Source: a phage
Sequence record: PX393109.1
Direction: 5' to 3' (one strand)
DNA length: 64,000 nt
In this document: in pieces, positions 11,654 to 58,892 of the stretch
Layout of the letters: every line of letters begins with the position of its first letter
How positions within the stretch are numbered: position 1 is the stretch's first letter
The notes under the pieces: generated by a model
Told to the model about the DNA's origin: nothing
Databases searched by the model: none
The model's input: the letters and a program-made list of their open reading frames with translations, nothing else
Translations under genes and position numbers: made by a program

Positions 11654-11686
11654 GGGGTTAGGTCTCTACGGCCTAACCCCATTTTT
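11654..11686 (+). terminator. hairpin terminator (GGGGTTAGG...CCTAACCCC + ATTTTTG)
   Basis: 9-bp stem and T-run located between class A copy 4 and the next gene; shares CCCCATTTTTGTGTAG tail with terminator at 4437. Confidence 0.6.
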
Positions 11687-11704
11687 GTGTAGCGAGGATT
11701 AATA

Positions 11705-12316
11705 ATGAAGTCACGACTGATTATCAGCCCACATCACGATGATGAGATTCTGGGTTGCGGAGGTATTATGAGCAAATTCCGCGATGACCAATTCTTCATC
11801 CTCGAAGTAACTGCTCCGGACGAGACCCGTCGTGGCGAAGCCGAAGCAGCATTCGGTGTCTATCCGAATATCAAAGAAGTACATTGCCTGGAGCGTAACG
11901 ATGCCTCCACAGGCGATGGTATGACTCAGAAGGATATTCCGCAATTGGCTAAGGATATTGCGGACTATGTTGCTAAAATCAGGCCGGATGTAGTCTATAT
12001 TCCGTTCAGTAGCCTACACCAGGACCATCAACTAGTTAATCATGCTGCTCGTGTAGCTCTCCGAGCGTATAACTGGCTTATCCTGGAATATGAGTATGCC
12101 GAGTCCCTGACCCAGTTCGGTCAGATGGAACCTAATTACTTCGAGCGTCTGAATAAGGACGATATTGAGTGTAAGTGCCAGGCTATGGGACGATTCGACT
12201 CCCAGATTAAGTCAGACCGAGATACCCAGAGTATCTTAGCCCTAGCCACCTTACGTGGATATTCCGCCCAGTGGCCGTACGCCGAAGGGTTTCGCTTAGT
12301 TCGTCAAATTGGATAA
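11705..12316 (+). CDS. PIG-L/LmbE-family deacetylase (N-acetyl-sugar deacetylase-like)
   Basis: N-terminal ISPHHDDEILGCGG and HQDH motifs characteristic of the zinc-dependent LmbE/PIG-L fold. Confidence 0.65.
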   Translation: MKSRLIISPHHDDEILGCGGIMSKFRDDQFFILEVTAPDETRRGEAEAAFGVYPNIKEVHCLERNDASTGDGMTQKDIPQLAKDIADYVAKIRPDVVYIPFSSLHQDHQLVNHAARVALRAYNWLILEYEYAESLTQFGQMEPNYFERLNKDDIECKCQAMGRFDSQIKSDRDTQSILALATLRGYSAQWPYAEGFRLVRQIG

Positions 12317-12322
12317 ATAATT

Positions 12323-13404: not shown

Positions 13405-14484
13405 ATGAAAATTGCAGTAACTAACTTTTCGCCATGCAGCGATAAATCCATCATCGCCAGTAACACTCTGGCATCCTGGTTAGCCTACGGACTTCAGGCG
13501 GACTTGCTGGATGATACTCCTAAGTTTGTTAAGGCTATGGAAGATGGCACCAAATATGACGTGATCATCGCCGTCAATGGTGTTCCTACCTTCTGTAAGT
13601 TCCGCGATGAGATGTATAAATTCTGGGTAGACCAGGCGGACCTCGGAGCTAAGTTTTACTGGATTGGTCAAGATTATTCATCACGTATGCGTATCCAGGG
13701 TCCGCAGTGGCGACACATCACAGCAGCTACGACATTTAAAGTAGTAGCAGCATTCGAGCGTACTTCCTGGGGTAATCAGTACTCCCCTAGCGAAGAGAAC
13801 TATCACCACATTAACTGGAACCGTCTTACCTACGTTCCTGGTCGTAAGCCTCGCTACGGCTCATCTGATAAACCAGACAATAGCCTGCTGTATTACGGTG
13901 CTGCTCGTGAAGGTCGCTTCCATAAGTTCACTCAGTACTTCTCCCAGCAGGATGGTCTGGAACTGTTTATGTCGGTGCCTAGCTACAAAGCTCAGATGTC
14001 TATCGCTAAACATACTGGTGGTCTTGCTGGATTTGACGGCTACGAGCAGGAAAACTGGGAAGAGCTGGATCCTAAAGAACGTAAGTGGCTGGGGCCTGCT
14101 GCTCCTATTAACTGGCTGCCTAAGTTTAAGCTGTCAGAGATGCTGGATGAAGTGGCTAAATACGCAGCGGTACTGCTTATTGAAGACTGGAACTCTAGTA
14201 ACTCGTTCTATACCAGCCCACCTAACCGTTATTATGAATACCTGAGCTCTGGTACTCTGATGTTGGTGGATAAAGATGCTGCCGGAACAATAATCCGGAG
14301 CGGCGTCCCCGAAGAGCTGCTGGCTCCTCTGATCGTCTCCAGTAATGCGGAGATTGCAGAGAAACTGAAAGATCGTGATGCTCTGCTGAAACATCAGTAT
14401 GAGAATCTGTATCTGCGCAAGGATTACGCACAAGAACTTCAGGATGAAGTAATCGACTACTTTACCAAAGAAGGTATTCTTTAA
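13405..14484 (+). CDS. DNA beta-glucosyltransferase-like protein (T4 BGT-like, GT-B fold)
   Basis: Several colinear blocks resemble T4 beta-glucosyltransferase as I recall it (MKIAVTNFS vs MKIAIINMG; YDVIIAVNG; YYGAAREGRFHK vs YGGSFRSGQRE; RYYEYLSSGTLMLVD vs RVWETMASDAVMLID). Recall-based, needs alignment. Confidence 0.5.
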   Translation: MKIAVTNFSPCSDKSIIASNTLASWLAYGLQADLLDDTPKFVKAMEDGTKYDVIIAVNGVPTFCKFRDEMYKFWVDQADLGAKFYWIGQDYSSRMRIQGPQWRHITAATTFKVVAAFERTSWGNQYSPSEENYHHINWNRLTYVPGRKPRYGSSDKPDNSLLYYGAAREGRFHKFTQYFSQQDGLELFMSVPSYKAQMSIAKHTGGLAGFDGYEQENWEELDPKERKWLGPAAPINWLPKFKLSEMLDEVAKYAAVLLIEDWNSSNSFYTSPPNRYYEYLSSGTLMLVDKDAAGTIIRSGVPEELLAPLIVSSNAEIAEKLKDRDALLKHQYENLYLRKDYAQELQDEVIDYFTKEGIL

Positions 14485-15455
14485 TGTCAACACCGTTAGG
14501 TCTGCATTACGAAGGACTCCTTGGGATGATAAATCCTGAGGAGTTACGGGAGTATGTGGAGTATAACCGTGAACGTACAGAGGTTTATTATAAGAAGGAG
14601 GTGCTTAAGCTGCCTCCTCCGTGGACGGAACATAAGTGGATTAGTAAGTTCAAATTCACTAACGTGTTCCGTAAGCACGATCGTGAAACAGTGTGGGCTA
14701 TTAAGAACATTCTGGAGAACGATTCTTTAAGCTGGGAGAGTAAAGCACTTAATGTAGTACTCTTCCAGATGATAAACCGTGGTGATTCATATATGGATCG
14801 CTTCCGCAGAGTCCTTCCTCTTTATGAGATGAGCTATGACGACATACATAACATGGGTCGCGAAGAGCTACGTCGTTATGAGGATGGTCCTCCGTTCACC
14901 GCTCCACAGCAATCAAATGCCTACTTCCTTAGCACAGCAGTTAAGATGGCTAATGAAGTATGTCCAGAGGATATTAAGTACAGTGTAGCTGCCAGAGCCT
15001 ATCTGGTGAAGACCTACAGTGATCCTATCTTATGGGCATGGAAGTCTCCGTTCGCTACCGAGGCTATCGAGCATCTGTTACAGGTATCTGGATTAGGTCC
15101 GTTCATGGCATATCAATGCTGGGCAACTATGTCCTACTCTAAAGAGACTGCGTATACAGATAATGACGCTATCGTATGTGGACCTGGGACTCAGGATGGG
15201 GTATGGTACATGATTAATGACCAGAATCCTCCCTGTGGTTATCAGGTATTCGTGGAATGGTGGTATCAGAACATCAAAGAGATATGTGCACATTTCGGGT
15301 ATTCATGGGAACCGGAGAAATGGTTCCACTTCATGCCAGAGGATGAGCGATTCTATACTCGCCAGATGTTCACCAACTCATTCTGCGAATTCTCGAAACT
15401 ACATAAACTGAATCACGAGATCCGTATGAGACCTCGCTGGTATAAGTTTAGCTAG
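14484..15455 (+). CDS. hypothetical protein (323 aa), member of putative modification cluster
   Basis: ORF translationally coupled (TAATG) to upstream gene; no confident domain. Confidence 0.5.
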   Translation: MSTPLGLHYEGLLGMINPEELREYVEYNRERTEVYYKKEVLKLPPPWTEHKWISKFKFTNVFRKHDRETVWAIKNILENDSLSWESKALNVVLFQMINRGDSYMDRFRRVLPLYEMSYDDIHNMGREELRRYEDGPPFTAPQQSNAYFLSTAVKMANEVCPEDIKYSVAARAYLVKTYSDPILWAWKSPFATEAIEHLLQVSGLGPFMAYQCWATMSYSKETAYTDNDAIVCGPGTQDGVWYMINDQNPPCGYQVFVEWWYQNIKEICAHFGYSWEPEKWFHFMPEDERFYTRQMFTNSFCEFSKLHKLNHEIRMRPRWYKFS

Positions 15456-15517: not shown

Positions 15518-15544
15518 GGGAAAGATTCTTAATTGGAGAGAATA

Positions 15545-16267
15545 ATGAGAGACTATAGTATCCCAGGCTACAGTGTAATTATGTCTGGTGCGCAGGGTAC
15601 CGGTAAATCTACCCTGGCTAAAGGTTGGGAAGAATCAACCGAATGTACCTTCCGTGCAGTACAGACTCGTGACCATCTTCCTCTGGGAGTAACATCCCAT
15701 ATGGATATTCTGCGCTTAGCTGTAGAAGATCCTATGGAAGCGGTAGAGTTCCAGCTGCGTCTTATTCGTCAGCGAACTCAGATGTTCAAGGATGCCTACA
15801 ATCGTGGCGAGTTGATCGTCAGTGATCGTGCGGTATTCGATTCGTACGTTTACTTCCTGCTGCATAACAGTATGTTTGCCAGCCAGGAAGCTCGTGATGA
15901 GGCATTACGTCTCAGTAACGAGTCTATTGATTATTATAACATGACTCTGTTCTTCAATACGAAGGATAAGAGTATTGAGGACAATAACTTCCGTGTTGTT
16001 GATCCTGAATACTCTGTAGCAGTCAGTTCTACTCTCCTTAAGGTAACTATGCGTGCCTACGAGGAGCGATTCGGTGCTGCGTTGTGTAATTCTGTAACTC
16101 TGAATCATCCGGTGTATCCTGGATCAATCACAGCTCGTTTTACTAATACTGGTAAAGGTATTATGATCCTGAACGAGCCATCTGGTATGATCCCTCAGGA
16201 GGCCCGTCTGGAGTTACTGTCCTCTGCAGTTAAGTCTATTGATTCAGTGCGTAAGGACTCTAAATGA
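15545..16267 (+). CDS. P-loop nucleotide/deoxynucleotide kinase (dNMP kinase-like)
   Basis: Walker A MSGAQGTGKST near N-terminus, DR..FDSYVY lid-like region; size and layout resemble dNMP/dNK kinases. Start at ATG 15545 (track start is TTG). Confidence 0.55.
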   Translation: MRDYSIPGYSVIMSGAQGTGKSTLAKGWEESTECTFRAVQTRDHLPLGVTSHMDILRLAVEDPMEAVEFQLRLIRQRTQMFKDAYNRGELIVSDRAVFDSYVYFLLHNSMFASQEARDEALRLSNESIDYYNMTLFFNTKDKSIEDNNFRVVDPEYSVAVSSTLLKVTMRAYEERFGAALCNSVTLNHPVYPGSITARFTNTGKGIMILNEPSGMIPQEARLELLSSAVKSIDSVRKDSK

Positions 16268-17337
16268 TCTCGGTAATTCGCGGTAACAGTAATACTGAAA
16301 TCCTGGTTAACAGCATCAATACTATGGATAAGGCTGGTGAGTTGCAGAAGTCCAGAACTTCTGTTAACTCTTCGGCGGTAGTATCCATCGGTCATGCTGT
16401 AGTTGAGTTAAGTAATCCGATTAATCGTTGGATGGCTCATCCAGAACGTAAAGACAATATCCTCGGAATTATGGGGGAAGTATTGTGGGTACTGTCTGGT
16501 GGCTATGCAATCGATAACTGGATGTCGATTATGGTTCCTCGCGCTAAGATGTTTAGCGATGATATGGTTACCTGGCGTGGTGCTTACGGTGAGCGTCTGT
16601 ATAACTACGATCAACTCCAGACTGTAACAGACCGCCTCCGTTCTGACCTGGGTAACCGTAAGTGCGTGGCTACTATTCACGATCCCAGCCGTGATTCTGA
16701 TGTAGGTCTGGTAAACAGCATTGGCAGCATCAATACCGCAGATATGATCTGCAACATTGCTCTATCGTTTAAGTACCGTAATGGTGGTCTGGACTGCACG
16801 GTATTCAACCGTAGTAATGATCTAATCTGGGGATTGACTAACGTTAATCTGGTGGAGTTCACGATCATCCAGGAAATCATCGCAACTATGCTCAAAGTAG
16901 ATATGGGCAACTATGTGGTGATGACGGATGATCTCCACTGGTATCCGGAAGTGTCGAACATCAAGAAGCAGGTAAGTAATATCCGAGCTTATGTTGACGA
17001 CATTAATGAAGCTCCGGTAACTACGATTGATCTCGGATCACTTAATTCCTGGTATAAGATCCGTACCTACTTCCAGCATTACATCGCTACTCTTGAAGAT
17101 GCTGCTTCTCGTTATAATAGCGATCACAGTATTCTAGAATACGTAATGGAAGATGTTGGTCGAGAGTTCCAACCAGGATCAACTCTGGATGTGATGATGT
17201 GGTTAGCAGGCGCTCATTATCTATGTAAGACTACTGGAGCTCACATGTCTATCCAGTGCGAGCATCTGGTTAATTCACCATTCGTGAAATGGGTCGCGAA
17301 CCGCCTCGGGGATAAGTCTCCGTTTATTCTGGAATAA
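16264..17337 (+). CDS. thymidylate synthase / deoxypyrimidylate hydroxymethylase superfamily enzyme (ThyA-gp42 fold)
   Basis: Colinear ThyA-family motifs: EVLWVLSGG, WRGAYGERLY, DQLQ..RKCVATIHDP, catalytic-Cys region MICNIAL, NRSNDLIWGL, DDLHWY. The RSND and C-x-N features resemble T4 dCMP hydroxymethylase more than canonical ThyA. Confidence 0.7.
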   Translation: MISVIRGNSNTEILVNSINTMDKAGELQKSRTSVNSSAVVSIGHAVVELSNPINRWMAHPERKDNILGIMGEVLWVLSGGYAIDNWMSIMVPRAKMFSDDMVTWRGAYGERLYNYDQLQTVTDRLRSDLGNRKCVATIHDPSRDSDVGLVNSIGSINTADMICNIALSFKYRNGGLDCTVFNRSNDLIWGLTNVNLVEFTIIQEIIATMLKVDMGNYVVMTDDLHWYPEVSNIKKQVSNIRAYVDDINEAPVTTIDLGSLNSWYKIRTYFQHYIATLEDAASRYNSDHSILEYVMEDVGREFQPGSTLDVMMWLAGAHYLCKTTGAHMSIQCEHLVNSPFVKWVANRLGDKSPFILE

Positions 17338-17420: not shown

Positions 17421-18020
17421 ATGAAAGATCTTTTTAAGGTACCAGTGTGTACCAATAACGTGAATCGTTTCGCAGGTAAGCAAGTACTGTCTCATCGCTC
17501 TACTATCTCGGAGCATAGCTTCGAAGTTACTTACTACTCTACTCTGATTGTTCAGAAACTGGTGATGGATGGATTTTTAACTGCTGAGCAGGGTCTGGAA
17601 GTAAATCAGTACTCGTTGGTTCACGACATTCCAGAGATCTTTACAGGTGATGTCCCCTACACTGCTAAGGCTCGCTTCCCAGAGTTAAAAGAGACTCTGA
17701 ATAAAGTTGAGCAGGAAATCTGGGAAGAGGTACTTCCTACTTTCCGCACTCCTGCATCTGCCGAAGCTAAGTTCATCTGTAAAGTTGCAGATGCTATTGC
17801 GGTATCTCGTGAGATCATGACTGAGTTCAGCATGGGTAACATCTTCTTTGGCGAAAGCGAGCTGGAGAACTGCCGCAACATCTTCAGTACCTGCTTCAAT
17901 AAGTACAAAGACGAAGTGAGTGATGATGTATGGATGGGTACTCTCCAGTCTCTTCTCCATATGGCACATGGTAGTTCAATAGAGCACCTGGTTAAAGAGA
18001 CTATTGGCAATGCAGATTAA
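17421..18020 (+). CDS. HD-domain phosphohydrolase (YfbR-like 5'-deoxynucleotidase)
   Basis: HSFEV...VHDIPEIFTGDVP...KVADAIAV matches H...HD...D metal-binding pattern of YfbR-type HD nucleotidases. Confidence 0.65.
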   Translation: MKDLFKVPVCTNNVNRFAGKQVLSHRSTISEHSFEVTYYSTLIVQKLVMDGFLTAEQGLEVNQYSLVHDIPEIFTGDVPYTAKARFPELKETLNKVEQEIWEEVLPTFRTPASAEAKFICKVADAIAVSREIMTEFSMGNIFFGESELENCRNIFSTCFNKYKDEVSDDVWMGTLQSLLHMAHGSSIEHLVKETIGNAD

Positions 18021-20957: not shown

Positions 20958-20982
20958 CGGAGGTTTATTTTTGGAGTTAAAC

Positions 20983-23900: not shown

Positions 23901-24270
23901 TCGTGAGAATATGGAGGGGGCTATTCGTGAACTCTGGGATATGCCTATGCGCACTGATATCGAATTCGGTGCTCGGGGCGGTTCCTTGATGGGTCTGGAT
24001 GACTATGGAGTTAACGAAGATGGTTCCGGATGGCTGATCGTTGAGGGTCGTGAGTCTGCATTGGAGAAACTACTGGAAGCTCTCGATCAGTATAGCCAGT
24101 GGACTCCATACGTAGAGATCCTTAAGGAGAAGGAGAAGTTAAACTCTATAGCTAACAGCTTCAACTCCAAATCCGGTATTCGTTCCGACGGTACAGGCTG
24201 GGGATGTAAGTATATCGAGCTTAAGGCTAAAATAACTCTGGAGCCTAAACATGGCGAGAAAGCAGCGTAA
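20983..24270 (+). CDS. family A DNA polymerase (Pol I-like) with N-terminal extension
   Basis: Motif A DFSQAELVMVS, motif B KGGKAINFALVYQ, motif C VHDSLD; N-terminal region has DEDD-like exonuclease motif LGLDYES. Start at ATG 20983 (track start is TTG). Confidence 0.8.
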   Translation: MFLNHNLVGEVDYVIIGDERENNDAPPFAASNAGQTLDVALITAGVHNKVGLIEINRDGTFEELSNIDEIRDKDGLNFYELCEKHGVKHVMTLGRQLAATISPGYTHKKTLDKLLKFPLGNIPEYNFKLAVVMHHAQVERNLDSDPGILDSWIDRFKFLVFGQKESEYNVEWEFVDWNGLQEFLNDIMWSGYKGYLGLDYESNAADLFSVDFRITGFSIAKKIGDKDAKSVWYNVTGKETPEQLGFLRDFLVKFQEQIVAFNCPYEIKTTWHWLDVFCKFIDAIVTLTMHGERSSLKDAARRYLHADFWEGSVHEWKDRWAAIFKDMKKRCTPEQIAEIQSGEFNIEHHLALKAEYEKLVEAAPTKAAKNRIPVNFNQFMLDKIAELSEELEESEIIYLASFYPYEWGAIPREILGEYCCYDSAYGVFIHEMFYDKYKDGYNVYMLHPYLASIFEANGIRWDDEEATKEYDYCMSKMSEHLVSLIPNLKLPPDQMLTARDFIYRELPYENVWYTPGGQERRKMVTTLAGKIADLSGFFNPNSNDKANKEKFWKAYLTDEVEMCTMLWSVMDQLKVHDYWDKTLLAISKGFVPKDSEKLEREFFREFPVDEILTRIIQFGDTAESKHVRELIAMCVQDGLEAYEERFTNKFKADVLDAQLAIHQLMLGVNPDDESTWNTSFRMMVDLKMYKRHYKQIATYIDGKVGRQTVWAAKLRDGLPPLRVRKYDWDNPKLQDGEDCYIMTPDFNSLAAITSRWQAGIHNVPGDSTLRNIWVSKPEGGLWYHQDFSQAELVMVSVFADDSDMKNVFLSGGDMHRFVSSIAYQKSEPEVTDVERKGGKAINFALVYQSSLESVAMVATGGDMERAQNLMDTVFGKFTGLKAWIDATKKNGFETGYAYGYFGNRINLEGTNVNSTSVNYPIQNTSSMVAGAGMYFLDEDFKQSNMEAETHIMVHDSLDTTSGINEMFKVFQKTRENMEGAIRELWDMPMRTDIEFGARGGSLMGLDDYGVNEDGSGWLIVEGRESALEKLLEALDQYSQWTPYVEILKEKEKLNSIANSFNSKSGIRSDGTGWGCKYIELKAKITLEPKHGEKAA

Positions 24271-28501: not shown

Positions 28502-30016
28502 ATGATCGTATCAAAGTCCTTGAATGAATTACACCGTCTTATTGATATGAAAGAAGCAACCTACACCACTCCGGTGCGTTTTTACTTCTCTGATGGTCCT
28601 AAAGAAACTACTATCGGTCGACTGTTTATTTGGGAAATCAGCGGCTATCTTCCAGAGAAAGAAATAGATAAGAAGGAATCTGCGAAGATCGTCTCTTACA
28701 TCAATAATAACTATACTCCGGAAGTGGCTGGTCGCCGACTGCATAAGTTGCAGCAGTTCGGATTTCATAAGGCTACTCAGTCTGGTCTGAGTTTATGTTA
28801 CGACGACACTAAGTTTGACTTCGGTATAGACTTTCCAGCCATGACTCAGGAACTCGGTAAGATGGGGTACGAGGATCGTCTGGCTGCTGCGGATAAAGTC
28901 ATCAACGAATGTACCGATCGCTGGTTTAAGGAAGTAGACCGTCATAATCCGCTGTATGCGATGGGTGTATCTGGTGCTCGTGTATCTCCTCCCCAGGTTC
29001 GTTCGATGGTGGTGGCTAAAGGCCTTCTGGTGGGCATGACTGGCAAGATCATGCCGATGCCGATCATGGAGAACTTAAGCTCTGGATTATCTCCCATCAA
29101 CTACTTCAATACCTGCGGACCTGCTCGTAAGGGTCTGGCTGGTAACTTCTTCCTGGTACCTGCGACTGGTTGGTTTGCTCGCCAGCTGGTTAACTGTTCC
29201 AGAGAGTTGTCTATTGTAGAAGAAGACTGCGGAACTAAGGAAGTAATCACCTTACCTAAGAAATCAGCACTGTATCGATTCACTAGCGACCGAATAATGG
29301 TTACTAAAGAGAATGTGGATCAGCTGGCGGATGAAGAAGGTAATGTGAAAGTCCTTAGCCCTATCACCTGTGAATCAACTAAGGGTGGGGTATGTCAGCA
29401 TTGCTGTGGTATGGATCCCGCTAAGCCTGCTAACTTCTTCCCTATTAACTTCGGTATTGGAACGGCGTCGGCGCAACATATCTCCGAACCATCTACTCAG
29501 GCTGGTCTCCGTGGTAAGCATACATCTGGTTCGACTACGCTTAAGGAATTCGGTACTTCGGTAAGTAACTCCTTAGCCGATATCCTGAAGACGGTAGGTG
29601 GCCGAGGAACTGCGGTGGCTCAGGTATCTGAGTCTAAGTATAAGTGCATCACGGATCTTGCCCACGAAACTGGATCAGCAATTAAAGGTGCAGAGTTAGC
29701 TGCGATTCAGCTTAAGCACATCTTCGACGACATCGGTATCGGTATCGCATCGATTCACCATGAGATCATTGCTCGCGGTTGTACTGATCTGGTTAAGATG
29801 AATAATGGACGAATCGGTGTTCGCAGCATGGGAGATAAGGGTGAGGTACTGGCGATTAAAGCCGATGCCATCCCTACGAAGCATCCCAGCTGGTTGAAGT
29901 CTATTGGCCATGGTAACGTTAAACGTAGACTTACTGATGCAGTGCTTAATGGTGATGTTAGCTTCGGAACCCGTTCCGAGATGATCATTGCTGGGTTAAA
30001 TCTGAATAACAAATAA
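28502..30016 (+). CDS. RNA polymerase beta-prime-like subunit, C-terminal half (bridge helix/trigger loop region)
   Basis: NTCGPARKGLAGNFFLVPATGWFARQLV resembles beta-prime region F (STHGARKGLADTALKTA..GYLTRRLV); ASAQHISEPSTQAGLRGKH resembles trigger-loop AAQSIGEPGTQLTMRTFH. Confidence 0.75.
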   Translation: MIVSKSLNELHRLIDMKEATYTTPVRFYFSDGPKETTIGRLFIWEISGYLPEKEIDKKESAKIVSYINNNYTPEVAGRRLHKLQQFGFHKATQSGLSLCYDDTKFDFGIDFPAMTQELGKMGYEDRLAAADKVINECTDRWFKEVDRHNPLYAMGVSGARVSPPQVRSMVVAKGLLVGMTGKIMPMPIMENLSSGLSPINYFNTCGPARKGLAGNFFLVPATGWFARQLVNCSRELSIVEEDCGTKEVITLPKKSALYRFTSDRIMVTKENVDQLADEEGNVKVLSPITCESTKGGVCQHCCGMDPAKPANFFPINFGIGTASAQHISEPSTQAGLRGKHTSGSTTLKEFGTSVSNSLADILKTVGGRGTAVAQVSESKYKCITDLAHETGSAIKGAELAAIQLKHIFDDIGIGIASIHHEIIARGCTDLVKMNNGRIGVRSMGDKGEVLAIKADAIPTKHPSWLKSIGHGNVKRRLTDAVLNGDVSFGTRSEMIIAGLNLNNK

Positions 30017-31595: not shown

Positions 31596-33164
31596 ATGAA
31601 ATTAAAGTTATCTATTGCAACTGATGATGTAATCCGTGCCGAGTCCAGTGGTGAAGTAACCAGTATGGGCATGTATAACCTTAAGTTCCATGATCCTAAG
31701 CCATTCACTGGTGGGTTATTCTGCCAGCGTATCTTCGGACCTCTGGTAACTGGTAAGTGTGAGTGTGGTAACCAGCTGGTTATGGGAGCGCCTCCGTGTA
31801 ATGTGTGCGGTATGGTAGCTATGCATCGTGAATCTCGTCGCCGCCGTATGGGTCACATCGAGACGATCGTTCCTTATGTGAATCCATTAGCTATCAAACG
31901 TATGGCTGCGCTATTCGGATTCCCAGAGCGAGAATTCGGTCAGTTCCTTATCGGTAAATATCGCTTCGTAGTTCAGGAAGCTGGTCTGGCAGCTAAGATG
32001 GTTGGTGATGATCGGGAGCGGGTTCGTGAGGCTAATGCTGCTCTTCCGGAATATGAAGATCGTGAGAAGTATGCGATGTTCTACTCTAACACTATCCCAG
32101 TTCAGGATAGCACGAAGCGCCTCGCAGTGGTAATGATTAAGATCCGCCGTATGTCAGAGCACGAGTCATCAGAGTTAGGTCTTCTGAGTCTTATCCAGGC
32201 ATTGGTAGCTAATCATGCTGATATGAAAGCCTATATCGAAGAGTGCGAAGATCCTACAGTAATCAATAGTGGTTATACAGAGTTCAGCGACTTCTATAAC
32301 ACTACGGTGCTGGTGAATCCTCCTAGCTATCGTGATGTTGGCATCAGCAATGGGGTAATGTCGTATCATCCGACTAACTTACTCTACCTGCGAATCCTGC
32401 GCCATGCTATCCGTATCAGAAGTATTCGCGATACTGCCGAGGCCAGCGAAGCGTTGTTATCTCTGATTCCTCGTGAATCTATTGTAATGCAGAAGATGGT
32501 TAACGGACTAATCCTGGAGGGCACTAAGGACTATCGAGGTAACTTAATTAAGCCGATGATCAATAATCTTAAAGGTAAGGGTGGTCGAATCCGTGGTAAC
32601 CTGTTAGGTAAGCGCGTTGATTACTCCGGTCGTTCTGTAGTTACTTCGGCTCCGCATCTTCCGCTGGATACTCTTGGTGTACCGTTCAAGATGATGTACG
32701 AATTACTTCAGCCAGACATCCTGGGTGAGCTGGAGAACTTATATGGTGGCCCGACTAACGAAGGGTACAACATGTACGACATCAGCAATAAAGTCCAGCG
32801 TATGTACAAGAATAAGTCCCGAGTAGCTCTGGAAGTATGCTGGAGACTGTGTGAGAATGCCACGGTGTTCATGAACCGTGCACCATCCCTACACCGTTAC
32901 TCAGTATGGGGATTTAAGGTCAGACCTCACATGGGTAAGGAGATTCAGGTTCCTCCGATGGCTATGGGTGGTCAGAACATGGACGTGGATGGTGATACCG
33001 CAGCAATTCACCGTGTACTGACTGATCGTGCTTGCTGGGAAGTACGTAGCCTGATGATGGTTAACCAGAACATCAACAGCTCTATTGACTTCGATAGTCC
33101 GGTCGTGAAGCCGTCCCACGAAATGGTGGTAGGTCTGTTCCAGGCAACTACGGTGGATATGTAA
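31596..33164 (+). CDS. RNA polymerase beta-prime-like subunit, N-terminal half (zinc ribbon to catalytic loop)
   Basis: GGLFCQRIFGP...CECG...CNVCG...RRRRMGHIE resembles the beta-prime N-terminal zinc-binding region; NMDVDGDTAAIH matches catalytic NADFDGDQMAVH near C-terminus. Confidence 0.75.
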   Translation: MKLKLSIATDDVIRAESSGEVTSMGMYNLKFHDPKPFTGGLFCQRIFGPLVTGKCECGNQLVMGAPPCNVCGMVAMHRESRRRRMGHIETIVPYVNPLAIKRMAALFGFPEREFGQFLIGKYRFVVQEAGLAAKMVGDDRERVREANAALPEYEDREKYAMFYSNTIPVQDSTKRLAVVMIKIRRMSEHESSELGLLSLIQALVANHADMKAYIEECEDPTVINSGYTEFSDFYNTTVLVNPPSYRDVGISNGVMSYHPTNLLYLRILRHAIRIRSIRDTAEASEALLSLIPRESIVMQKMVNGLILEGTKDYRGNLIKPMINNLKGKGGRIRGNLLGKRVDYSGRSVVTSAPHLPLDTLGVPFKMMYELLQPDILGELENLYGGPTNEGYNMYDISNKVQRMYKNKSRVALEVCWRLCENATVFMNRAPSLHRYSVWGFKVRPHMGKEIQVPPMAMGGQNMDVDGDTAAIHRVLTDRACWEVRSLMMVNQNINSSIDFDSPVVKPSHEMVVGLFQATTVDM

Positions 33165-33694: not shown

Positions 33695-33968
33695 GGAGCA
33701 CGGTGCTCTCTGTGGAGTAAACGAGTTTTACACCTCATGGACCGGTCTCGGCTGTAATCCAGATACCACCGCAGCATTCTTCGAGACTTATGAAGAGGCT
33801 GGATTAATATCTGAACTGTTGCAAGATCCAAACGTATCAGTATTCGGACCAATCTATCAAGACTCTGAAGTAACTGATAAGATTCCTGTAAGTATTGTGG
33901 AATCGTTGGGTATCAAATGCTCCTACTATAGGCAGGAGCCCGAAAATAAACTACCATGGCCATGGTGA
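33669..33968 (+). CDS. hypothetical protein (99 aa)
   Basis: ORF overlapping RNase H 3' end; weak evidence. Confidence 0.3.
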   Translation: MLGFLVVHKEHGALCGVNEFYTSWTGLGCNPDTTAAFFETYEEAGLISELLQDPNVSVFGPIYQDSEVTDKIPVSIVESLGIKCSYYRQEPENKLPWPW

Positions 33969-33973
33969 TAAAA

Positions 33974-34480
33974 ATGAATAAAGCTGAAGTAGTGTTAGGA
34001 CTTGTACAGTCCGTGGACGAGGGTTACTCCTCGGTAAAATTCTGTCCAGACTCTGATGCCTGGATAGATAATCTTAAGCAGGTTATCTCTGAAGTAGCTG
34101 ATTATGATAAGCTTAACTTCGATACCGGTCACGATAACCACTGCACCCTTATGTATGCTCCGGGGACTGGTGCTCCGGATGAGGGAACTATTGCTGATCT
34201 GGTAGGTAGCAAACTTCATCTGAAGAATCCTCGCTATGAGATCTTCGGTGAGAATGCTAACTACCTGGTGCTGGCGTTCGATAGCGATCTGCTACAATCG
34301 TTTAACTATCGACTCCGTGCATCTGGGGAGGTACCGTCTGAGATCAGTGCGGAATACTCTCCTCACATAACTCTGGCCAAGGACGTAGAGAATCTGGATA
34401 TCTCTACTCTACCAGAATTACCGACCGATCTGTATTTAAACATCACTAGCGTAACTGCTGAGGAAATCAAGAATGACTAA
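33974..34480 (+). CDS. hypothetical protein (168 aa)
   Basis: ATG after GGTGATAAAA; ORF to 34480. Confidence 0.45.
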   Translation: MNKAEVVLGLVQSVDEGYSSVKFCPDSDAWIDNLKQVISEVADYDKLNFDTGHDNHCTLMYAPGTGAPDEGTIADLVGSKLHLKNPRYEIFGENANYLVLAFDSDLLQSFNYRLRASGEVPSEISAEYSPHITLAKDVENLDISTLPELPTDLYLNITSVTAEEIKND

Positions 34481-53927: not shown

Positions 53928-54486
53928 TTTCAGTATGCAGAGTCTTGAAGACTTTGTACCAGAGCATGGTAAGAGCGTAGTAGTCTTCTACCACGAGCGA
54001 TTCTATTCCCGAGTAGAAATGCTACAGATGCAAGTAGAGTTCCACTACCAGATGATAGATGGCGATGGCTGCCCAGTTCCTCAGTGGGCATGCTATGATA
54101 ATCGTGACGACATACCGTTCGATAAGCCATTCATCTGGAAAGATAAGCAGGTTAAGTTCCTTACTCTGGACGACTGTATGGAAATACATAATCGTCATCC
54201 CAAGCACCACTATCGTTACTGGTGGGTTAAGGACTGGTTCCTAACTGGCGGAGGAAATAGCCAGTTAAATAGGGAACAGCTGGCGGAGATGTCGTTAGGG
54301 ATTATGAGTGCCGAACAGTTTAGTGCTGAGCTGGATAAGGGATGTGCTGATCTGGAAGCCAAGCGTATCTTACGTGAATTAACTCGTGAATCCCGTACTG
54401 GATATTGTGAGAAGCATGGCACTCGTCAGCTGGGTAAGGACCTATGTGATGTGTGCCGTATTGAACGTGCATTTATGGAGGGATGA
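53917..54486 (+). CDS. hypothetical protein with Cys-rich C-terminus (189 aa)
   Basis: ATG 53917 (track start is GTG); C-terminal CEKHG...CDVC. Confidence 0.4.
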   Translation: MPINFSMQSLEDFVPEHGKSVVVFYHERFYSRVEMLQMQVEFHYQMIDGDGCPVPQWACYDNRDDIPFDKPFIWKDKQVKFLTLDDCMEIHNRHPKHHYRYWWVKDWFLTGGGNSQLNREQLAEMSLGIMSAEQFSAELDKGCADLEAKRILRELTRESRTGYCEKHGTRQLGKDLCDVCRIERAFMEG

Positions 54487-55142
54487 TGCGGATCTGGACC
54501 GACAAGAACTCTATTCTGGAGTTTATCGGAGAGTACCGATTCCTATCTAACTTTTATCCTGTTCCTATTGAGGATAAGAATCCTTACGGGAACGAGACTC
54601 TTCCCTCCCTTACTTACCCTAGTGTGGAGCATGCCTATCAAGCATCTAAGTCTCCATCACTAGCCCATCGTCTTATCATAGCTAGACTTCATACTCCTGG
54701 TGAGGCCAAGAGATATGGACGTAAGCTGCCCATTACTGAATCGTGGAAGGAACAGAGAGTAGATGTGATGGAACACCTACTCCGGATTAAATTCGCGAAA
54801 GGTGGGGAGCTAGCTCAAAAATTGACCGATACTTGGCCTAAGGAGCTGGTCGAAGGAAATACCCACGGAGATTCCTTCTGGGGTATGACTCGTGAGGAGT
54901 ACAAGTCCGTCCTCACTGGTATTAATATGCTCGGACGATTACTGATGAAACTTCGGGAGGAGTTAGTTATGGAACAAATGACCAAGGAGACAGGATCGTT
55001 TGCGGAGTGGCATAAACTGCTGCACCAATACGCTCAGTCTCGTGGCGGTAGCGCTGCTGATGCGGAAGCCTGGCGGGATGATTACGATGAAGGTAAGACC
55101 CCTAAGCAGGCCTACGACGATGAGTGGGGCGAAGAAGACTAA
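54483..55142 (+). CDS. NADAR/YbiA-family protein (DUF1768; N-glycosidase / ADP-ribose-processing fold)
   Basis: FLSNFYPVPI...YPSVEHAYQASKS...GEAKRYGRKLP..SWKEQRVDVMEHLLRIKF...HGDSFWG colinear with E. coli YbiA as I recall it. Confidence 0.7.
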   Translation: MMRIWTDKNSILEFIGEYRFLSNFYPVPIEDKNPYGNETLPSLTYPSVEHAYQASKSPSLAHRLIIARLHTPGEAKRYGRKLPITESWKEQRVDVMEHLLRIKFAKGGELAQKLTDTWPKELVEGNTHGDSFWGMTREEYKSVLTGINMLGRLLMKLREELVMEQMTKETGSFAEWHKLLHQYAQSRGGSAADAEAWRDDYDEGKTPKQAYDDEWGEED

Positions 55143-55846: not shown

Positions 55847-56560
55847 ATGTCTACTAAGATGATGCCACACCATCTGGCTCCGAATAAACTGTTTAACCGA
55901 TTCCTGTCATATCACGACTCCTACCACTGCGCAATTGACATCGAGACCGAGTATCTCGATTTTAAAGAGCCTGGGGTAGTTCTATCTGTAGGTATGGTGA
56001 CGGTTGGTCCTGATCACTACTCCCACGTCTACTTCACTATTGATCGAGAAGAGTCGCTGGCTCTGGGTATGAAGTCTGACCCTAACGTAGTTGAATGGCT
56101 CAACACTCTCCCGAAACCCGTCCGTGATGCTGCATATGCTAATCCAGTATCTGTTGACGAAGCTCTGGATATCATCGAAGAGTACGTAGCTAAGGTACTA
56201 CAGGATCCTGGTTGCCAGATGTTGAACTTCATCGGTAACGCACCAGAGTTCGACCAGGGATTCCTGGATTGGTACTTTAAGGCTAAAGGACGTAAGACCC
56301 CGTTCCTACACTGGATGAATCGAGATTACCGCACTCTGGCTAGTCTGCAGCTGATCTCATTCGATGATCGTCGCATGATTAAAGAAGAACTGAGTAGCCA
56401 GCACGAGTCTATGTCTGATCACCATGCATTGTTCGATGCGATGCTGGAAGCTAAGACTTGGGTTCGCACCATCAATCGTGTAAAAGAGTTACAGGATCTG
56501 GAGCACGAGGTGAATACCATGATTGCTATGCAGGGTAACTCTGTGGAAGATGGAGAGTAA
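55847..56560 (+). CDS. DEDDh 3'-5' exonuclease (DnaQ/RNase T-like)
   Basis: Exo I CAIDIETEY, and C-terminal H...D motif HHALFDAMLEA. Confidence 0.65.
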   Translation: MSTKMMPHHLAPNKLFNRFLSYHDSYHCAIDIETEYLDFKEPGVVLSVGMVTVGPDHYSHVYFTIDREESLALGMKSDPNVVEWLNTLPKPVRDAAYANPVSVDEALDIIEEYVAKVLQDPGCQMLNFIGNAPEFDQGFLDWYFKAKGRKTPFLHWMNRDYRTLASLQLISFDDRRMIKEELSSQHESMSDHHALFDAMLEAKTWVRTINRVKELQDLEHEVNTMIAMQGNSVEDGE

Positions 56561-56873
56561 GCTTTGTCGGGTGGTTAATATACGTACCAATCCTAACTAC
56601 GATTTATATGTTGGGAGAGGTACTATATTCGGGAATAAGTGGAGCCATAAAGATTTACCTAACGCTATTAACGTAGGTTCCCGAACATTAGCCATCGCGA
56701 AATACAGACTATGGTTCCACCAGCAAGTAAAAGATGGCCACATAAGCATCTCCTACTTACGGACTCTTAAGGGTAAGACTTTAGGGTGCTCCTGCTTACC
56801 GTTACCATGTCATGCTCAAGTTATAGCTGACTTCGTTAATTCATTACCTGACGAAGATTCCGCTCTTTCGTAG
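56550..56873 (+). CDS. hypothetical protein (107 aa), Cys-rich C-terminal region
   Basis: ATG overlapping upstream gene; LGCSCLPLPCHA motif; family not assignable with confidence. Confidence 0.4.
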   Translation: MESKLCRVVNIRTNPNYDLYVGRGTIFGNKWSHKDLPNAINVGSRTLAIAKYRLWFHQQVKDGHISISYLRTLKGKTLGCSCLPLPCHAQVIADFVNSLPDEDSALS

Positions 56874-56911: not shown

Positions 56912-57136
56912 ATGCAATCACGTCGTATTGGTTTGTTAAGCGGTATCGGTATGGTTCTGGCTGGATTAGGTCATATGTGGCCCACCCCAGCAGTGTCTGC
57001 TAAAGGCTATGACGGATTCCGTCGCGCCTGTACCAAGGTAAGCTGCCCTAAGACTACTACAGCATCTGCATTAAAGCGTGCGGCTAAGAAGGCTAAAGGC
57101 CGTAAGGTTAATAAGCAACGTCACAAGGGTAAATAA
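56912..57136 (+). CDS. small protein with N-terminal hydrophobic segment and basic tail (74 aa)
   Basis: GLLSGIGMVLAGLG hydrophobic; C-terminal KKAKGRKVNKQRHKGK. Confidence 0.4.
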   Translation: MQSRRIGLLSGIGMVLAGLGHMWPTPAVSAKGYDGFRRACTKVSCPKTTTASALKRAAKKAKGRKVNKQRHKGK

Positions 57137-57516
57137 TGTCTCATATGACCCGAGAAGAAATCGTATTGATGGTGGCTAAGGTGTGTCACGAAGCTAATCG
57201 TGCATACTGCCATTCTATCGGAGACTTCACCCAATTAAGCTGGGAAGCAACATCCGATGAAATAAAACAGTCGGCTATTGATGGAGCGTATAACTGCTTA
57301 CACAATAACCGTATCAGCCCAGAAGAGTCCCATGAATTCTGGGTTAAAACTAAAAAGGAGCAGGGCTGGAAGTATGGAGAAATCAAAGATCTCGCAGCTA
57401 AGACGCACCCGTGTATGGTTCCATATTCACGGTTGCCGGAAGAGCATCGAGTCAAAGATCACCTCTTCACCAGCATCTGCGCAGCATTCATTAAACAGTA
57501 CAAAAGGGCATCATGA
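57136..57516 (+). CDS. hypothetical protein (126 aa)
   Basis: ORF with ATGTCTCATATG start region. Confidence 0.4.
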
Positions 57517-57983
57517 TGACCGTAGTTCAAGTAAAGAAAACTATTAACTGGGACGACTCTCTGGAGTTACCGAAATACGCTAAAGCTGGTGATGCTGGTC
57601 TTGATCTTCGTGCGATGATTAAGACTGACGAAATCGATAAAATCGCTGTAAATCCTGGCGAAACTATCCTGGTCCCTACCGGTCTAGCGATCAACATCGG
57701 CGATCCGAACATCGCTTCTGTGATTCTTCCCCGCAGCGGCCTCGGCCATAAAAATGGCATCGTACTGGGTAACTTGGTTGGTCTTATCGACTCCGGCTAT
57801 CAAGGAGAACTGATGGTGTCTGTGTGGAACCGTAGTAACGAATCTTTCGTTATTAACCACGGCGACCGTATCGCTCAAATGGTGTTTCTTCCCGTTATCC
57901 ATCCAGAGCTCCAGCTTGTGGATAAATTCTCTGATGTTTCTGAACGTGGCGACGGTGGGTTTGGCCATTCCGGGATTAAGTAA
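57513..57983 (+). CDS. dut: dUTP diphosphatase (trimeric dUTPase)
   Basis: Canonical dUTPase motifs [27 protein letters not shown], and C-terminal [10 protein letters not shown]. Confidence 0.85.
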
Positions 57984-58065
57984 TCCTGGGGTAGTTAGAC
58001 TACGGTAATTACTATTGACCTCTTTGCGGAGAGGTCAATGTTATTCTACCATAGAACCGAGGAAT

Positions 58066-58269
58066 ATGATGGATATTGAGCAACTAACTAAGGATCTTAA
58101 TCGTAACCAGATTACGGTTATTCGTTCGGAGCACTTAGCTCCCAAGACTATGATCGTGTCTGATGATATCTGGGGCACATTCAAGAATAATAATAATAAT
58201 AATAATAATAATGCTACTGTAGAAGCTACAGATGAAGAATCTGTTAAGAACATGCTGGAGCATCCGTAA
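58066..58269 (+). CDS. hypothetical protein with poly-Asn tract (67 aa)
   Basis: ATG after CCGAGGAAT; contains (AAT)9 encoding N9. Confidence 0.4.
   Translation: MMDIEQLTKDLNRNQITVIRSEHLAPKTMIVSDDIWGTFKNNNNNNNNNATVEATDEESVKNMLEHP
58186..58212 (+). repeat. (AAT)9 trinucleotide microsatellite within coding sequence
   Basis: aataataataataataataataataat read directly. Confidence 0.9.
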
Positions 58270-58892
58270 TGATCCTTGGTAAATCTTATATTGAGCAGGC
58301 AATTACTCAAGGATTATGGACCTATCACAGTTATCTGGACAATCAGGAACCACGAATCGGACAGAATAGTGTAGATGTACGCTTAGCTCCGTTCTTCCTG
58401 GTTCCTCAAAAGATGCCTGATGGCCATGTAGTAGATCCCTATAAACCATGTACTCTTCCGGAGTATCGCGAGGTAGAGGCACTATACTACGATCTTAAAC
58501 CTGGGGAGTTCATCTTAGGCTCAGCATCTGAACGTATCGACTGTACTACCATGTTGCCTGAGAAGTGGTTCGAGCATTATGACCCACGATACCGTAACAG
58601 CACTGTAGACCGTGGTGTGGCATTCTGTCAGCATTACGACGGTCGCAGCACTATGGGTCGTCTGGGAATACTGAGCCATGTCAGTGCAGGTTTCGGGGAC
58701 TTTGGATTCAAGGGAGCATTTACTCTAGAGATTGTTAACCTAAGCCCTAACACTATCCGACTGCGTTCTAACATGCGCATCGGTCAGATTTACTTTACTG
58801 AGGTTGCTGGTGGTGGCTACGACCTTTACAAAGGTTACGACCAGACTGACTTTAAACCAGTCGCACCAATCATAGGTCGCGATCGTTTCTAA
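58269..58892 (+). CDS. dcd: dCTP deaminase-like (Dcd/dUTPase superfamily)
   Basis: NSVDVRLAPFF and GRSTMGRLGILSHVSAGFGDFGFKGAFTLEIVN colinear with E. coli Dcd (VDVRLG; GRSSLARLGLMVHVTA..DPGW.G...LEF.N) as I recall it. Confidence 0.65.
   Translation: MILGKSYIEQAITQGLWTYHSYLDNQEPRIGQNSVDVRLAPFFLVPQKMPDGHVVDPYKPCTLPEYREVEALYYDLKPGEFILGSASERIDCTTMLPEKWFEHYDPRYRNSTVDRGVAFCQHYDGRSTMGRLGILSHVSAGFGDFGFKGAFTLEIVNLSPNTIRLRSNMRIGQIYFTEVAGGGYDLYKGYDQTDFKPVAPIIGRDRF

Follow-up and report, generated by a model that had tools for sequence, protein, structure and literature searches.

The window, by which we mean the whole stretch of phage DNA that was analysed (64,000 nt, PX393109.1), carries a gene for a trimeric dUTPase (Dut) followed, after a small open reading frame, by a gene for a Dcd-family enzyme. 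About 40 kb away from this pair lie the genes of a 5-hmdU DNA kinase (5-HMUDK), a P-loop kinase, a homologue of thymidylate synthase (ThyA-like) and a small HD phosphohydrolase (Table 1). All genes of the set are on the plus strand. An earlier, sequence-only reading of this DNA had described the Dut/Dcd pair as remote from the hydroxymethylase gene, which is borne out by the separation, and all the open reading frames that it named were found at the same coordinates on the plus strand. The family scores of Dut and of the Dcd-like, HD and ThyA-like proteins, given below, lie far above chance level.

Table 1. Genes of the predicted nucleotide-modification set in the window
Feature	Position	Strand	Length and signatures
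5-hmdU DNA kinase (5-HMUDK)	14484..15455	+	PF18723 HMUDK_hel
P-loop kinase, candidate (5-hm)dUMP kinase	15533..16267	+	PF13521 AAA_28
Thymidylate-synthase homologue, predicted dUMP hydroxymethylase	16264..17337	+	357 aa; PF00303
Small HD phosphohydrolase, YfbR/DatZ/OxsA class	17421..18020	+	199 aa; PF12917
Trimeric dUTPase (Dut)	57513..57983	+	156 aa; PF00692, NF001862
Small open reading frame between Dut and Dcd-like	58015..58269	+	probable ATG 58066, 67 aa
Dcd-family enzyme	58269..58892	+	207 aa; PF22769; bifunctional Dcd-Dut signature

The DNA is about 92–94% identical to that of the Escherichia phages IME392 (vB_EcoM_IME392) and EP_H11, and the window is another isolate of this clade. Both phages have orthologues in the same gene order (AXY86133.1 and AXY86134.1 in IME392, WBU87719.1 and WBU87717.1 in EP_H11), with identities of 95–96% for the Dcd-like enzyme, 99.5% for the HD protein and 96–99.7% for the ThyA-like protein. 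EP_H11 differs in having one further gene behind the Dcd-like one. The dCTP deaminase, the dUTPase and the thymidylate synthase homologue of EP_H11 and IME392 have been assigned to the synthesis of 5-hmdUTP (PMC12686479, Table 1; bioRxiv 10.1101/2025.03.26.645540). A Pfam scan of about 68 open reading frames of the window, which spans only about 55% of one genome of the clade, found no MazG, dCMP deaminase, ThyX, RNR or PurZ. The only dUMP-using enzyme seen among these open reading frames is the hydroxymethylase homologue, with neither ThyX nor a canonical ThyA present.

The small open reading frame between Dut and the Dcd-like gene had no Pfam match. Its TAA stop overlaps the ATG of the Dcd-like gene (TAATG), and the frame carries a run of nine asparagines (Asn9), encoded by (AAT)9. 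A terminator-like hairpin lies ahead of it at 58013-58040; the sites in the promoter and terminator scan, which covered 56.8-60.6 kb, were no more numerous than expected from shuffled sequence.

The dUTPase and the Dcd-like enzyme

Dut scored 121.9 bits against PF00692 (E=1.9e-35, threshold 22) and 181.7 bits against the NCBIfam dUTP diphosphatase equivalog NF001862 (cut-off 103), and it matched phrog_135 dUTPase (2.2e-58). It is 62% identical to Dut of E. coli K-12 over 138 aa, and all five dUTPase motifs are there, including the catalytic Asp of motif III and the Gly-rich C-terminal motif V. From its motifs and matches, the product is a canonical trimeric dUTPase of host-like type. At least one related phage, Acinetobacter phage Ab1-TPeters, in which a tblastn search (E<=1e-3) found no Dut, has the rest of the set without this host-like gene.

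The Dcd-like protein scored 84.7 bits against PF22769 DCD (E=9.5e-24, gathering score 27) and 81.5 bits against the TIGR02274 equivalog, which is under the cut-off of 92.8. Its AF2 model (pLDDT 89.9) matched Dcd and Dcd-Dut structures in Foldseek with E=4e-12 to 6e-9. The bifunctional Dcd-Dut enzymes were the best matches in both sequence and structure, ahead of E. coli Dcd: among PDB sequences the M. tuberculosis Dcd-Dut (9e-13) and the M. jannaschii enzyme (7e-10) came before E. coli Dcd (3e-6), and Foldseek put the Dcd-Dut of M. tuberculosis and that of B. halodurans first, with E. coli Dcd at ranks 10-15.

The key residues are S127, R131, H137, F142, D144, E154, Q173 and Y187. The deaminase set of E. 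coli Dcd (S111, R115, H121, E138, Y171) corresponds to S127, R131, H137, E154 and Y187, each of which is kept in at least 177 of 179 Dcd-like homologues, and Ser102, Asp119 and Gln148 of the M. tuberculosis enzyme correspond to S127, D144 and Q173. Q173 is invariant (179/179). The position of E. coli Dcd Arg126 is taken by Phe142 and is aromatic in 161 of the 179 homologues (F in 126, Y in 33, W in 2), with R in 3. In the published signature (PMC3360063), bifunctional enzymes have an aromatic residue and not Arg at this position, together with the Ser, Asp and Gln named above. The entire bifunctional signature was found in 159 of the 179 homologues, and because of this active-site signature we read the Dcd-like enzyme as probably bifunctional, converting dCTP directly to dUMP and PPi.

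The fold is common to the Dcd-like enzyme and the bifunctional Dcd-Dut enzymes (M. tuberculosis Rv0321, M. jannaschii DCD-DUT and that of B. halodurans; TM 0.66-0.71), and so are the residues for deamination (Ser, Arg, His, Glu), those of the dUTPase (Ser, Asp, Gln) and an aromatic side chain at the Arg126 position. The identity, however, is just 27–29%, and the phage enzyme differs in a variable stretch of about 30 inserted residues (about 90-120; weakly conserved, pLDDT 68-74) and in its C-terminal tail, whose last two residues are R-F in most members of the phage clade.

We find it rather doubtful that the enzyme is monofunctional and only deaminates dCTP, as E. coli Dcd does; it would then release dUTP and make Dut an obligatory second step. 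Dut directly precedes it in the gene array, which suggests such a division of labour, but Ab1-TPeters has a Dcd-like gene (46% identity, in the same position at the end of the early block) and, by the search above, no phage Dut to go with it. The structure of E. coli Dcd matches well too, and the orthologues are named plain 'dCTP deaminase' in GenBank and in the 2025 papers; set against this are the better matches to bifunctional enzymes, Phe142 where monofunctional Dcd has an Arg blocking the hydrolytic water, and Gln173 where E. coli Dcd has Ala. A separate Dut beside a bifunctional enzyme looks redundant; M. tuberculosis also has both.

The probably bifunctional enzyme has close homologues in phages that have ThyX and no hydroxymethylase, which implies that it would supply dUMP in general and is no sign of base replacement by itself. 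The full-length matches among sequenced phages were all in the group of YerA41, Carin-5, IME392 and Ab1-TPeters.

The hydroxymethylase and the kinases

The ThyA-like protein matched PF00303 with E=4.7e-12. Its closest PDB entry was the CMP hydroxymethylase MilA (3e-13), the best thymidylate synthase being at 6e-5, and it is 41-42% identical to the enzymes of ViI-like phages. The catalytic C163 is retained together with R183, S184, D186, H225 and Y227. In the pairwise alignment Asn195 falls at the position of Asn177 in E. coli thymidylate synthase, where MilA has Asp. Asn195 also coincided with Asn177 when the protein was aligned jointly with ThyA of E. coli, gp42 of T4 and a ViI-like enzyme, and here the Asp of gp42, which we take to be equivalent to Asn177, was one column off. 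The protein is thus a predicted dUMP hydroxymethylase, closer to the hydroxymethylases than to the methyl-transferring thymidylate synthases.

The gene of the P-loop kinase overlaps that of the hydroxymethylase (end at 16267, start at 16264). The kinase matched PF13521 AAA_28 (2.1e-9) and phrog_2107 'thymidylate kinase' (1.2e-11) and gave no match in the PDB, and it has syntenic orthologues in Ab1-TPeters, where it is annotated as thymidylate kinase, and in the metagenomic contigs L014, L015 and L016. The 5-HMUDK gene adjoins the ThyA-like region; its product scored 121.7 bits against PF18723 HMUDK_hel (4.8e-35, cut-off 25), and matched phrog_2396 (1.8e-41), and this predicted DNA kinase identifies the phage as one that hypermodifies thymidine. 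Since an Asn at the uracil-specifying position occurs together with a dNMP-kinase-like gene and 5-HMUDK, the replaced base would be T, by way of 5-hmdU, and not C. The logic of base exclusion that had been proposed for these genes is upheld by Asn195, by the 5-HMUDK gene next door and by the identity to the ViI-like enzyme, with T as the base.

In Ab1-TPeters the genes again run kinase, ThyA-like, HD, primase-like, helicase and PolA, and so they do, with 5-HMUDK upstream, in the contigs L014 and L016; in four lineages the HD and hydroxymethylase genes are found in synteny. Contig L015 has the ThyA-like, HD, kinase and DCD-fold genes contiguous. We rejected it as proof of a link to Dcd: its DCD-fold protein is only 23% identical and has Gly for the catalytic Glu (TVG for TLE). 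Judging from this, the protein is not an orthologue of the Dcd-like enzyme, and it may be a Dcd-fold dUTPase or dTTPase.

The HD phosphohydrolase

The HD protein had been described as YfbR-like. It scored 54.4 bits against PF12917 YfbR-like (E=1.7e-14, threshold 25.9) and has a matching set of YfbR residues; against the NF003009 equivalog it scored 27.2 bits, which is under the cut-off of 122. Its PHROG matches were phrog_7076 'dATP triphosphohydrolase' (5.9e-19) and a dNMP phosphatase PHROG (1.6e-4), and its PDB sequence matches were DatZ (2e-5) and YfbR (0.02). DatZ was also at the top of the fold search (TM 0.60), where the E-values were weak (best 1.3e-2) and the preference for DatZ marginal. 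Confidence in the model is low over its N-terminal 23 residues, where the R16-F17 substrate motif lies. Going by these matches, the HD protein is no further from DatZ than from YfbR, and the dATP-specific triphosphohydrolase DatZ is its nearest characterised relative.

In the alignment of the family R16, H32, H68, D69, E72, D77, K83, K121 and D124 are invariant. The YfbR set, which we take to be the metal ligands H33, H68, D69 and D137 plus E72, D77 and R18-W19 (YfbR numbering), has the counterparts H32, H68, D69, D124, E72, D77 and R16-F17, all invariant or nearly so in the family. The triphosphate-neutralising lysines of DatZ, K81 and K116, correspond to K83 and K121. We dropped them as a means of telling a dNMP from a dNTP hydrolase, as the same lysines are found in YfbR, a monophosphatase. 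Of the residues I22 and P79 in the adenine pocket of DatZ, P79 aligns with T81 (with an inferred offset in the numbering), and no adenylosuccinate-synthetase-like gene (PurZ) was seen among the about 68 scanned open reading frames of the window; these two results do not support a DatZ of the Z-genome type.

DatZ of cyanophage S-2L, Dtm of roseophage DSS3_VP1 and E. coli YfbR have a small all-helical HD domain, as has the HD protein, which also keeps the metal-binding residues (H, HD and D), a catalytic Glu, the GD motif and the lysines of the DatZ/YfbR class. The sequence similarity to DatZ and YfbR is low. The HD-family enzyme of DSS3_VP1 has been shown to be a dTMP phosphatase (PMC12697855). 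When homologues of the HD protein were searched for by tblastn (E<=1e-3), neither this phage, with its proven enzyme, nor YerA41, with Gp060, was found; the protein is without BLAST-level likeness to any roseophage record, and presumably to Dtm. DatZ and Dtm remove a canonical nucleotide from the pool, and the role of the HD enzyme would match this. It most likely destroys thymidine nucleotides, namely dTMP and, less likely, dTTP.

The second of these substrates would make the enzyme a DatZ-type triphosphohydrolase that converts dTTP to dT and PPPi, and not a dNMP 5'-nucleotidase; we regard this triphosphohydrolase as the less likely of the two and on the whole somewhat unlikely. The closer PHROG and the best PDB sequence and fold matches are on its side. 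K83 and K121, which would suit a triphosphate, have their equivalents in the monophosphatase YfbR as well, and the R16-F17 motif lies in the low-confidence part of the model. Furthermore, the one phage HD enzyme that had been predicted as a dTTPase turned out to be a dTMP phosphatase, and the gene is fixed beside those of two enzymes acting on monophosphates, which also argues against dTTP.

Proposed pathway

It is quite likely that the genes described here make up the pre-replicative half of a thymidine-hypermodification pathway. The Dcd-like enzyme would deaminate dCTP and probably hydrolyse the product, giving dUMP and PPi, and the host-like Dut would clear free dUTP and add to the dUMP pool. 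The ThyA-like enzyme would then turn dUMP into 5-hydroxymethyl-dUMP, which the adjacent P-loop kinase would phosphorylate and the host NDP kinase would finish to 5-hmdUTP. The phage family-A DNA polymerase would put 5-hmdU into the DNA, where 5-HMUDK and downstream enzymes would hypermodify the base. The HD enzyme, encoded directly after the hydroxymethylase, would meanwhile break down dTMP or, less likely, dTTP, and with the thymidine nucleotides removed T would not compete. The computations show to which families the proteins belong, that their catalytic residues are conserved, their folds and the synteny of the genes; from these we infer all substrates and products, that the Dcd-like enzyme is bifunctional and which base the HD enzyme acts on. 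The route from dCTP through dUMP to a ThyA-family enzyme, together with an HD enzyme for a canonical deoxynucleotide, which the sequence-only reading had put forward, agrees with all computational tests (deaminase residues, Asn195, identity to the ViI-like enzymes and 5-HMUDK).

It is conceivable, but unlikely, that two bolder readings of these proteins hold together: that the HD protein is the first thymidine-specific one-step dTTP triphosphohydrolase of the DatZ branch, excluding T as DatZ excludes A, and that the Dcd-like enzyme belongs to a phage-specific, dUMP-forming bifunctional clade (hundreds of 50%-identity clusters), with an altered C-terminal tail that releases it from dTTP feedback. 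If both were true, hypermodifying phages that infect Gram-negative hosts would have a new enzymatic means of excluding T.

We think it improbable that Dut and the Dcd-like enzyme do ordinary housekeeping, raising dUMP and keeping uracil out of the DNA with no link to base replacement, and that the HD protein serves as a nucleotidase for general dNMP salvage. The distance of 40 kb between the pair and the modification cluster would fit this, and the close likeness of Dut to the host enzyme and its absence from Ab1-TPeters (tblastn, E<=1e-3) would as well. The Dcd-like homologues in ThyX-encoding phages also point that way, but the full-length matches are confined to the one group of sequenced phages named above, the hydroxymethylase homologue is the only dUMP user found among the scanned open reading frames of the window, and the HD gene keeps its place next to the hydroxymethylase in four lineages. 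That the phage replaces cytosine, with the Dcd-like protein acting as a dCTPase, as the sequence-only reading had allowed, and the ThyA-like one as a dCMP hydroxymethylase, is highly improbable and was rejected, the ability of dUTPase-superfamily folds to hydrolyse pyrimidine dNTPs being its only support against the conserved deaminase residues Glu154, Ser127, Arg131 and His137, the Asn instead of Asp at the base-specifying position of the ThyA-like enzyme, and the presence of 5-HMUDK.

Comparison with known systems

The classical scheme for 5-hmdU comprises a supply of dUMP, a dTMPase, a dTTPase, a hydroxymethylase and a kinase (PMC8989533). In SPO1/SP8, PhiW-14, ViI and M6 the pathway consists of a dCMP deaminase, a dUMP hydroxymethylase, a dNMP kinase, a dTTPase and a dTMPase, and its logic is that of the proposed pathway in the window: dUMP is made, hydroxymethylated and phosphorylated, and the dT nucleotides are depleted. 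The hydroxymethylase of the window is homologous to that of the ViI-like phages, and 5-HMUDK is present. The source of dUMP differs, in that it would come from dCTP through an enzyme of the dUTPase fold, whereas the classical phages make it from dCMP with a zinc deaminase. The candidate hydrolase of dT nucleotides differs too, being an HD protein in the window and a dimeric all-alpha dTTPase/dUTPase in phage SH-Ab 15599 (PMC13458397).

The clade of IME392, EP_H11 and the window would have a complete set of pre-replicative tools to replace T with a base derived from 5-hmdU, with dUMP drawn from dCTP and not from dCMP, which is useful for annotation, for reconstitution of the pathway and for sequencing of such genomes. 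The pathway logic and the gene assignments are already published for near-identical phages, and the finding is correct but ordinary; as the logic is classical and these assignments are in print, it opens no new question. Two modest additions are the bifunctional signature of the Dcd-like clade and the fixed order of kinase, hydroxymethylase and HD genes, which nominates the HD enzyme as the candidate dT-nucleotide hydrolase of the clade. The HD gene is listed as 'hypothetical protein' in the IME392 and EP_H11 records and is not discussed in the two 2025 papers.

The putative dUMP-supplying genes

The sequence-only reading rested on four ORFs, encoding a dUTPase (Dut), a protein of the dCTP deaminase family (Dcd-like), a phosphohydrolase of the YfbR/DatZ class (HD) and a predicted dUMP hydroxymethylase (ThyA-like). 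All four are present where that reading placed them, and their family assignments are backed by profile scores far beyond chance.

Coordinates and profile matches of the genes discussed
Feature	Position	Strand	Length (aa)	Profile match
5-HMUDK (5-hmdU DNA kinase)	14484-15455			PF18723 E=4.8e-35
P-loop kinase	15533-16267			AAA_28; PHROG 'thymidylate kinase'
ThyA-like	16264-17337	+	357	PF00303 E=4.7e-12
HD	17421-18020	+	199	PF12917 (YfbR-like) E=1.7e-14
Acb1-like (anti-CBASS)	33956-34480
NADAR	54483-55142
Rv2179c-like 3'-5' exoribonuclease	55847-56560
DUF4326	56523-56873
RyR-domain protein	57136-57516
Dut	57513-57983	+	156	PF00692 E=1.9e-35; NF001862 (NCBIfam equivalog) 181.7 bits vs cut-off 103
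Dcd-like	58269-58892	+	207	PF22769 E=9.5e-24

The 3' end of the RyR-domain ORF overlaps the start of Dut, and a small ORF between Dut and Dcd-like, with a probable ATG at 58066, has a TAA stop that overlaps the Dcd-like ATG (TAATG). Because of these overlaps the array looks co-transcribed. A scan of 56.8-60.6 kb for consensus promoters and terminators gave site counts not above shuffled expectation. Directly 3' of Dut there is a hairpin with a 12-bp stem, followed by the small ORF (hairpin and ORF within 58013-58269), in which an (AAT)9 run encodes nine consecutive Asn.

The Dcd-like protein was aligned with E. coli Dcd and 179 homologues from two protein searches. The deaminase residues S127, R131, H137, E154 and Y187 correspond to E. 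coli S111, R115, H121, E138 and Y171, and each is kept in at least 177 of the 179. According to the published rule (PMC3360063), monofunctional Dcd has an Arg126 that pairs with Asp128 and takes the place of the hydrolytic water. In bifunctional enzymes this residue is Phe or Trp, and Ser102, Asp119 and Gln148 (as numbered in M. tuberculosis) are required. The window protein carries the bifunctional signature (F142, S127, D144 and Q173), which is complete in 159 of the 179 homologues. The F142 position is aromatic in 161 and Arg in three, and the Q173 position is Gln in all 179 and Ala in E. coli Dcd. Bifunctional Dcd-Dut came first in both the sequence and the structure comparison: phmmer gave M. 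tuberculosis 9e-13, M. jannaschii 7e-10, B. halodurans 2.5e-8 and E. coli 2.9e-6, and the best matches of the AF2 model (pLDDT 89.9) were the M. tuberculosis and B. halodurans Dcd-Dut (TM 0.66-0.71), followed by E. coli Dcd. Since the residue signature is present and bifunctional enzymes top both rankings, the protein is rather likely to be a bifunctional enzyme that forms dUMP. Its score falls short of the TIGR02274 equivalog cut-off, an insertion at residues ~90-120 is variable and of lower confidence, and the C-terminal tail, ending in R-F, is unlike that of canonical Dcd.

The target base

The ThyA-like protein retains the catalytic Cys (C163) and the nucleotide-binding residues R183, S184, D186, H225 and Y227. 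Its Asn195 occupies the position of Asn177 in E. coli TS, where MilA, a cytosine-specific CMP hydroxymethylase, has Asp; in the multiple alignment the Asp of T4 gp42 falls one column off. The nearest solved relative is the hydroxymethylase MilA (3e-13), the best TS reaching only 6e-5, and identity to the enzyme of ViI-like Ackermannviridae, whose DNA contains 5-hmdU-derived bases (PMC8989533), is 41-42%. Directly upstream lie the 5-HMUDK and P-loop kinase genes. Together, the two kinases, Asn195 and the similarity to MilA and the ViI-like enzyme indicate that the pathway begins at dUMP and would replace T. The proposal that Dcd-like and the dUTPase feed dUMP to a ThyA-family enzyme is thus supported, by Asn195, 5-HMUDK and the retained deaminase residues. 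The alternative, a dCTPase with C as the target base, finds no support, as residue 195 is Asn and not Asp and 5-HMUDK lies upstream. A Pfam scan of ~68 ORFs in the window, which spans just ~55% of the genome length typical of the clade, gave no MazG-type dNTPase, dCMP deaminase, ThyX, canonical ThyA, RNR or PurZ.

5-HMUDK is detected unambiguously, with homologues also in the metagenomic contigs L014 and L016 and none in Acinetobacter phage Ab1-TPeters; a 2025 preprint on this phage group reported that it could not be detected (10.1101/2025.03.26.645540).

The HD protein

The metal ligands H32, H68, D69 and D124 are retained, as are the catalytic Glu72, Asp77, the Arg-aromatic pair R16-F17, Lys83 and Lys121, all invariant or almost so across the small family. 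DatZ, the dATP triphosphohydrolase of cyanophage S-2L, is a closer match (PDB 2e-5; phrog_7076 5.9e-19; top fold match, TM 0.60) than YfbR (PDB 0.02). The triphosphate-binding K81 and K116 of DatZ are also present in YfbR, so sequence cannot separate a dNMP from a dNTP substrate. The gene comes immediately after the kinase and hydroxymethylase and precedes primase, helicase and PolA, in the window as in Ab1-TPeters and in L014 and L016, two contigs in which HD identity is 38-54%. A dTMPase or dTTPase is needed in the classical pathway (PMC8989533), and in a roseophage with dU-DNA an HD enzyme that had been predicted to be a dTTPase turned out to act as a dTMP phosphatase (PMC12697855). Gene position, pathway need and the roseophage enzyme argue for a role on dT nucleotides; we favour dTMP as the substrate, at roughly even confidence, with dTTP as a tentative second candidate and something else, the third, being rather unlikely.

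Relatives and distribution

Megablast matched only two phage records, the near-identical Escherichia phages vB_EcoM_IME392 (94%) and EP_H11 (92%), both collinear with the window. In the IME392 record the orthologues carry the names 'putative dUTP diphosphatase' and 'putative dCTP deaminase'; of this pair, the EP_H11 record names the dUTPase alone. Both deaminases have been tabulated as such (EP_H11 WBU87719.1, IME392 AXY86133.1), and the route from dCTP deaminase through dUTP diphosphatase to a TS variant, giving 5-hmdUMP, was stated for this phage group (PMC12686479). The same scheme of dCTP deaminase, dUTPase and TS variant appears in the preprint (10.1101/2025.03.26.645540), and YerA41 was reported with 5'-deoxynucleotidase, dCTP deaminase, dUTPase and TS (PMC7354516). 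With scheme and gene assignments in print and the general pathway decades old (PMC8989533), the sequence-only finding is correct, but in the detail that it offered it was known before. Added here are the signature of bifunctional enzymes in the Dcd-like clade, the conserved kinase-hydroxymethylase-HD module, which nominates HD as the group's candidate dT-nucleotide hydrolase, and the clear presence of 5-HMUDK, in contrast to the preprint.

Dut shares 62% identity with its E. coli counterpart, and Dcd-like just 33% with host Dcd, over 73 residues; by these identities Dut looks like a host-type gene and Dcd-like like one of a phage lineage. An exhaustive search found 381 Dcd-like representatives at E<=1e-10. 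In sequenced phages, full-length homologues are confined to IME392, EP_H11, Ab1-TPeters, Carin-5, YerA41 and vB_Yru_GN1. Two metagenomic homologues, P0007 and P0017, lie in phage contigs with ThyX, one also with NrdD. Since these contigs encode ThyX, the family is predicted to be a general phage dUMP supplier, coupled to the hydroxymethylase in the window's lineage. In the N4-like contig L005 (8092-10740), P0007 lies between NrdD fragments of 631 and 52 aa, an arrangement that looks like an insertion into, or a split of, the gene for the anaerobic ribonucleotide reductase; ThyX follows 6 kb downstream.

Ab1-TPeters (complete genome, 109,750 bp) has homologues of Dcd-like, the kinase, ThyA-like, HD, PolA, PolX and ligase, and tblastn of the complete genome (E<=1e-3) gave neither Dut nor 5-HMUDK. 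This gene set is consistent with a Dcd-like enzyme able to work without a Dut from the phage, though host Dut could substitute. In the 8.8-kb metagenomic contig L015, a DCD-fold protein (5828-6385) is encoded directly 3' of HD and kinase genes, near ThyA-like. It has TVG for TLE, the catalytic Glu is missing, and identity to the window Dcd-like is 23%; a dUTPase or dTTPase with the Dcd fold is one possibility.

Other genes

Within the thymidine-hypermodification cluster, the stretch 8482-13357 contains a full-length BCCT (betaine/carnitine/choline) transporter (10236-11618, PF02028 E=4.3e-92), flanked by a SAM methyltransferase (8482-9222) and a PIG-L-type deacetylase (11705-12316) and annotated in IME392 and EP_H11 too. 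It may import the moiety attached to 5-hmdU. In L014, the PIG-L gene is closely preceded by a PS-decarboxylase-like gene and an ATP-grasp gene. The modification cluster also includes three ORFs of 300-360 aa (12323-13357, 13405-14484 and 9324-10232) that had no Pfam, NCBIfam or PHROG match; the aGPT-Pplase that has been reported from EP_H11 and IME392 may be among them. L014 has three unannotated ORFs of ~300-350 aa at the equivalent position.

The region 42569-46597 encodes a phosphopantetheine-binding carrier protein (42569-42823), then DUF7217 (E=1.8e-77), two weak MptE-like ORFs and a GT1 glycosyltransferase. The gene content suggests a module for glycosylation or for carrier-dependent decoration, which perhaps serves the DNA modification. 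The Acb1-like, NADAR, Rv2179c-like, DUF4326 and RyR-domain genes may serve in counter-defence or RNA repair.

Two RNA polymerase beta'-like fragments (28502-30016, 31596-33164) belong to a multisubunit enzyme in a phage of just ~115 kb, the fragment with Rpb1 domains 3-5 being encoded ahead of that with domains 1-2. The family-A DNA polymerase (1099 aa) has 9qhs (1142 aa, E=5e-39) as its best PDB match, and the window further encodes PolX and an NAD-dependent ligase (polymerase, PolX and ligase loci 20971-24270, 39788-40561 and 40626-42569). As a group the three correspond to the set of polymerase and base-excision-repair genes described in SP15-like DNAP phages.
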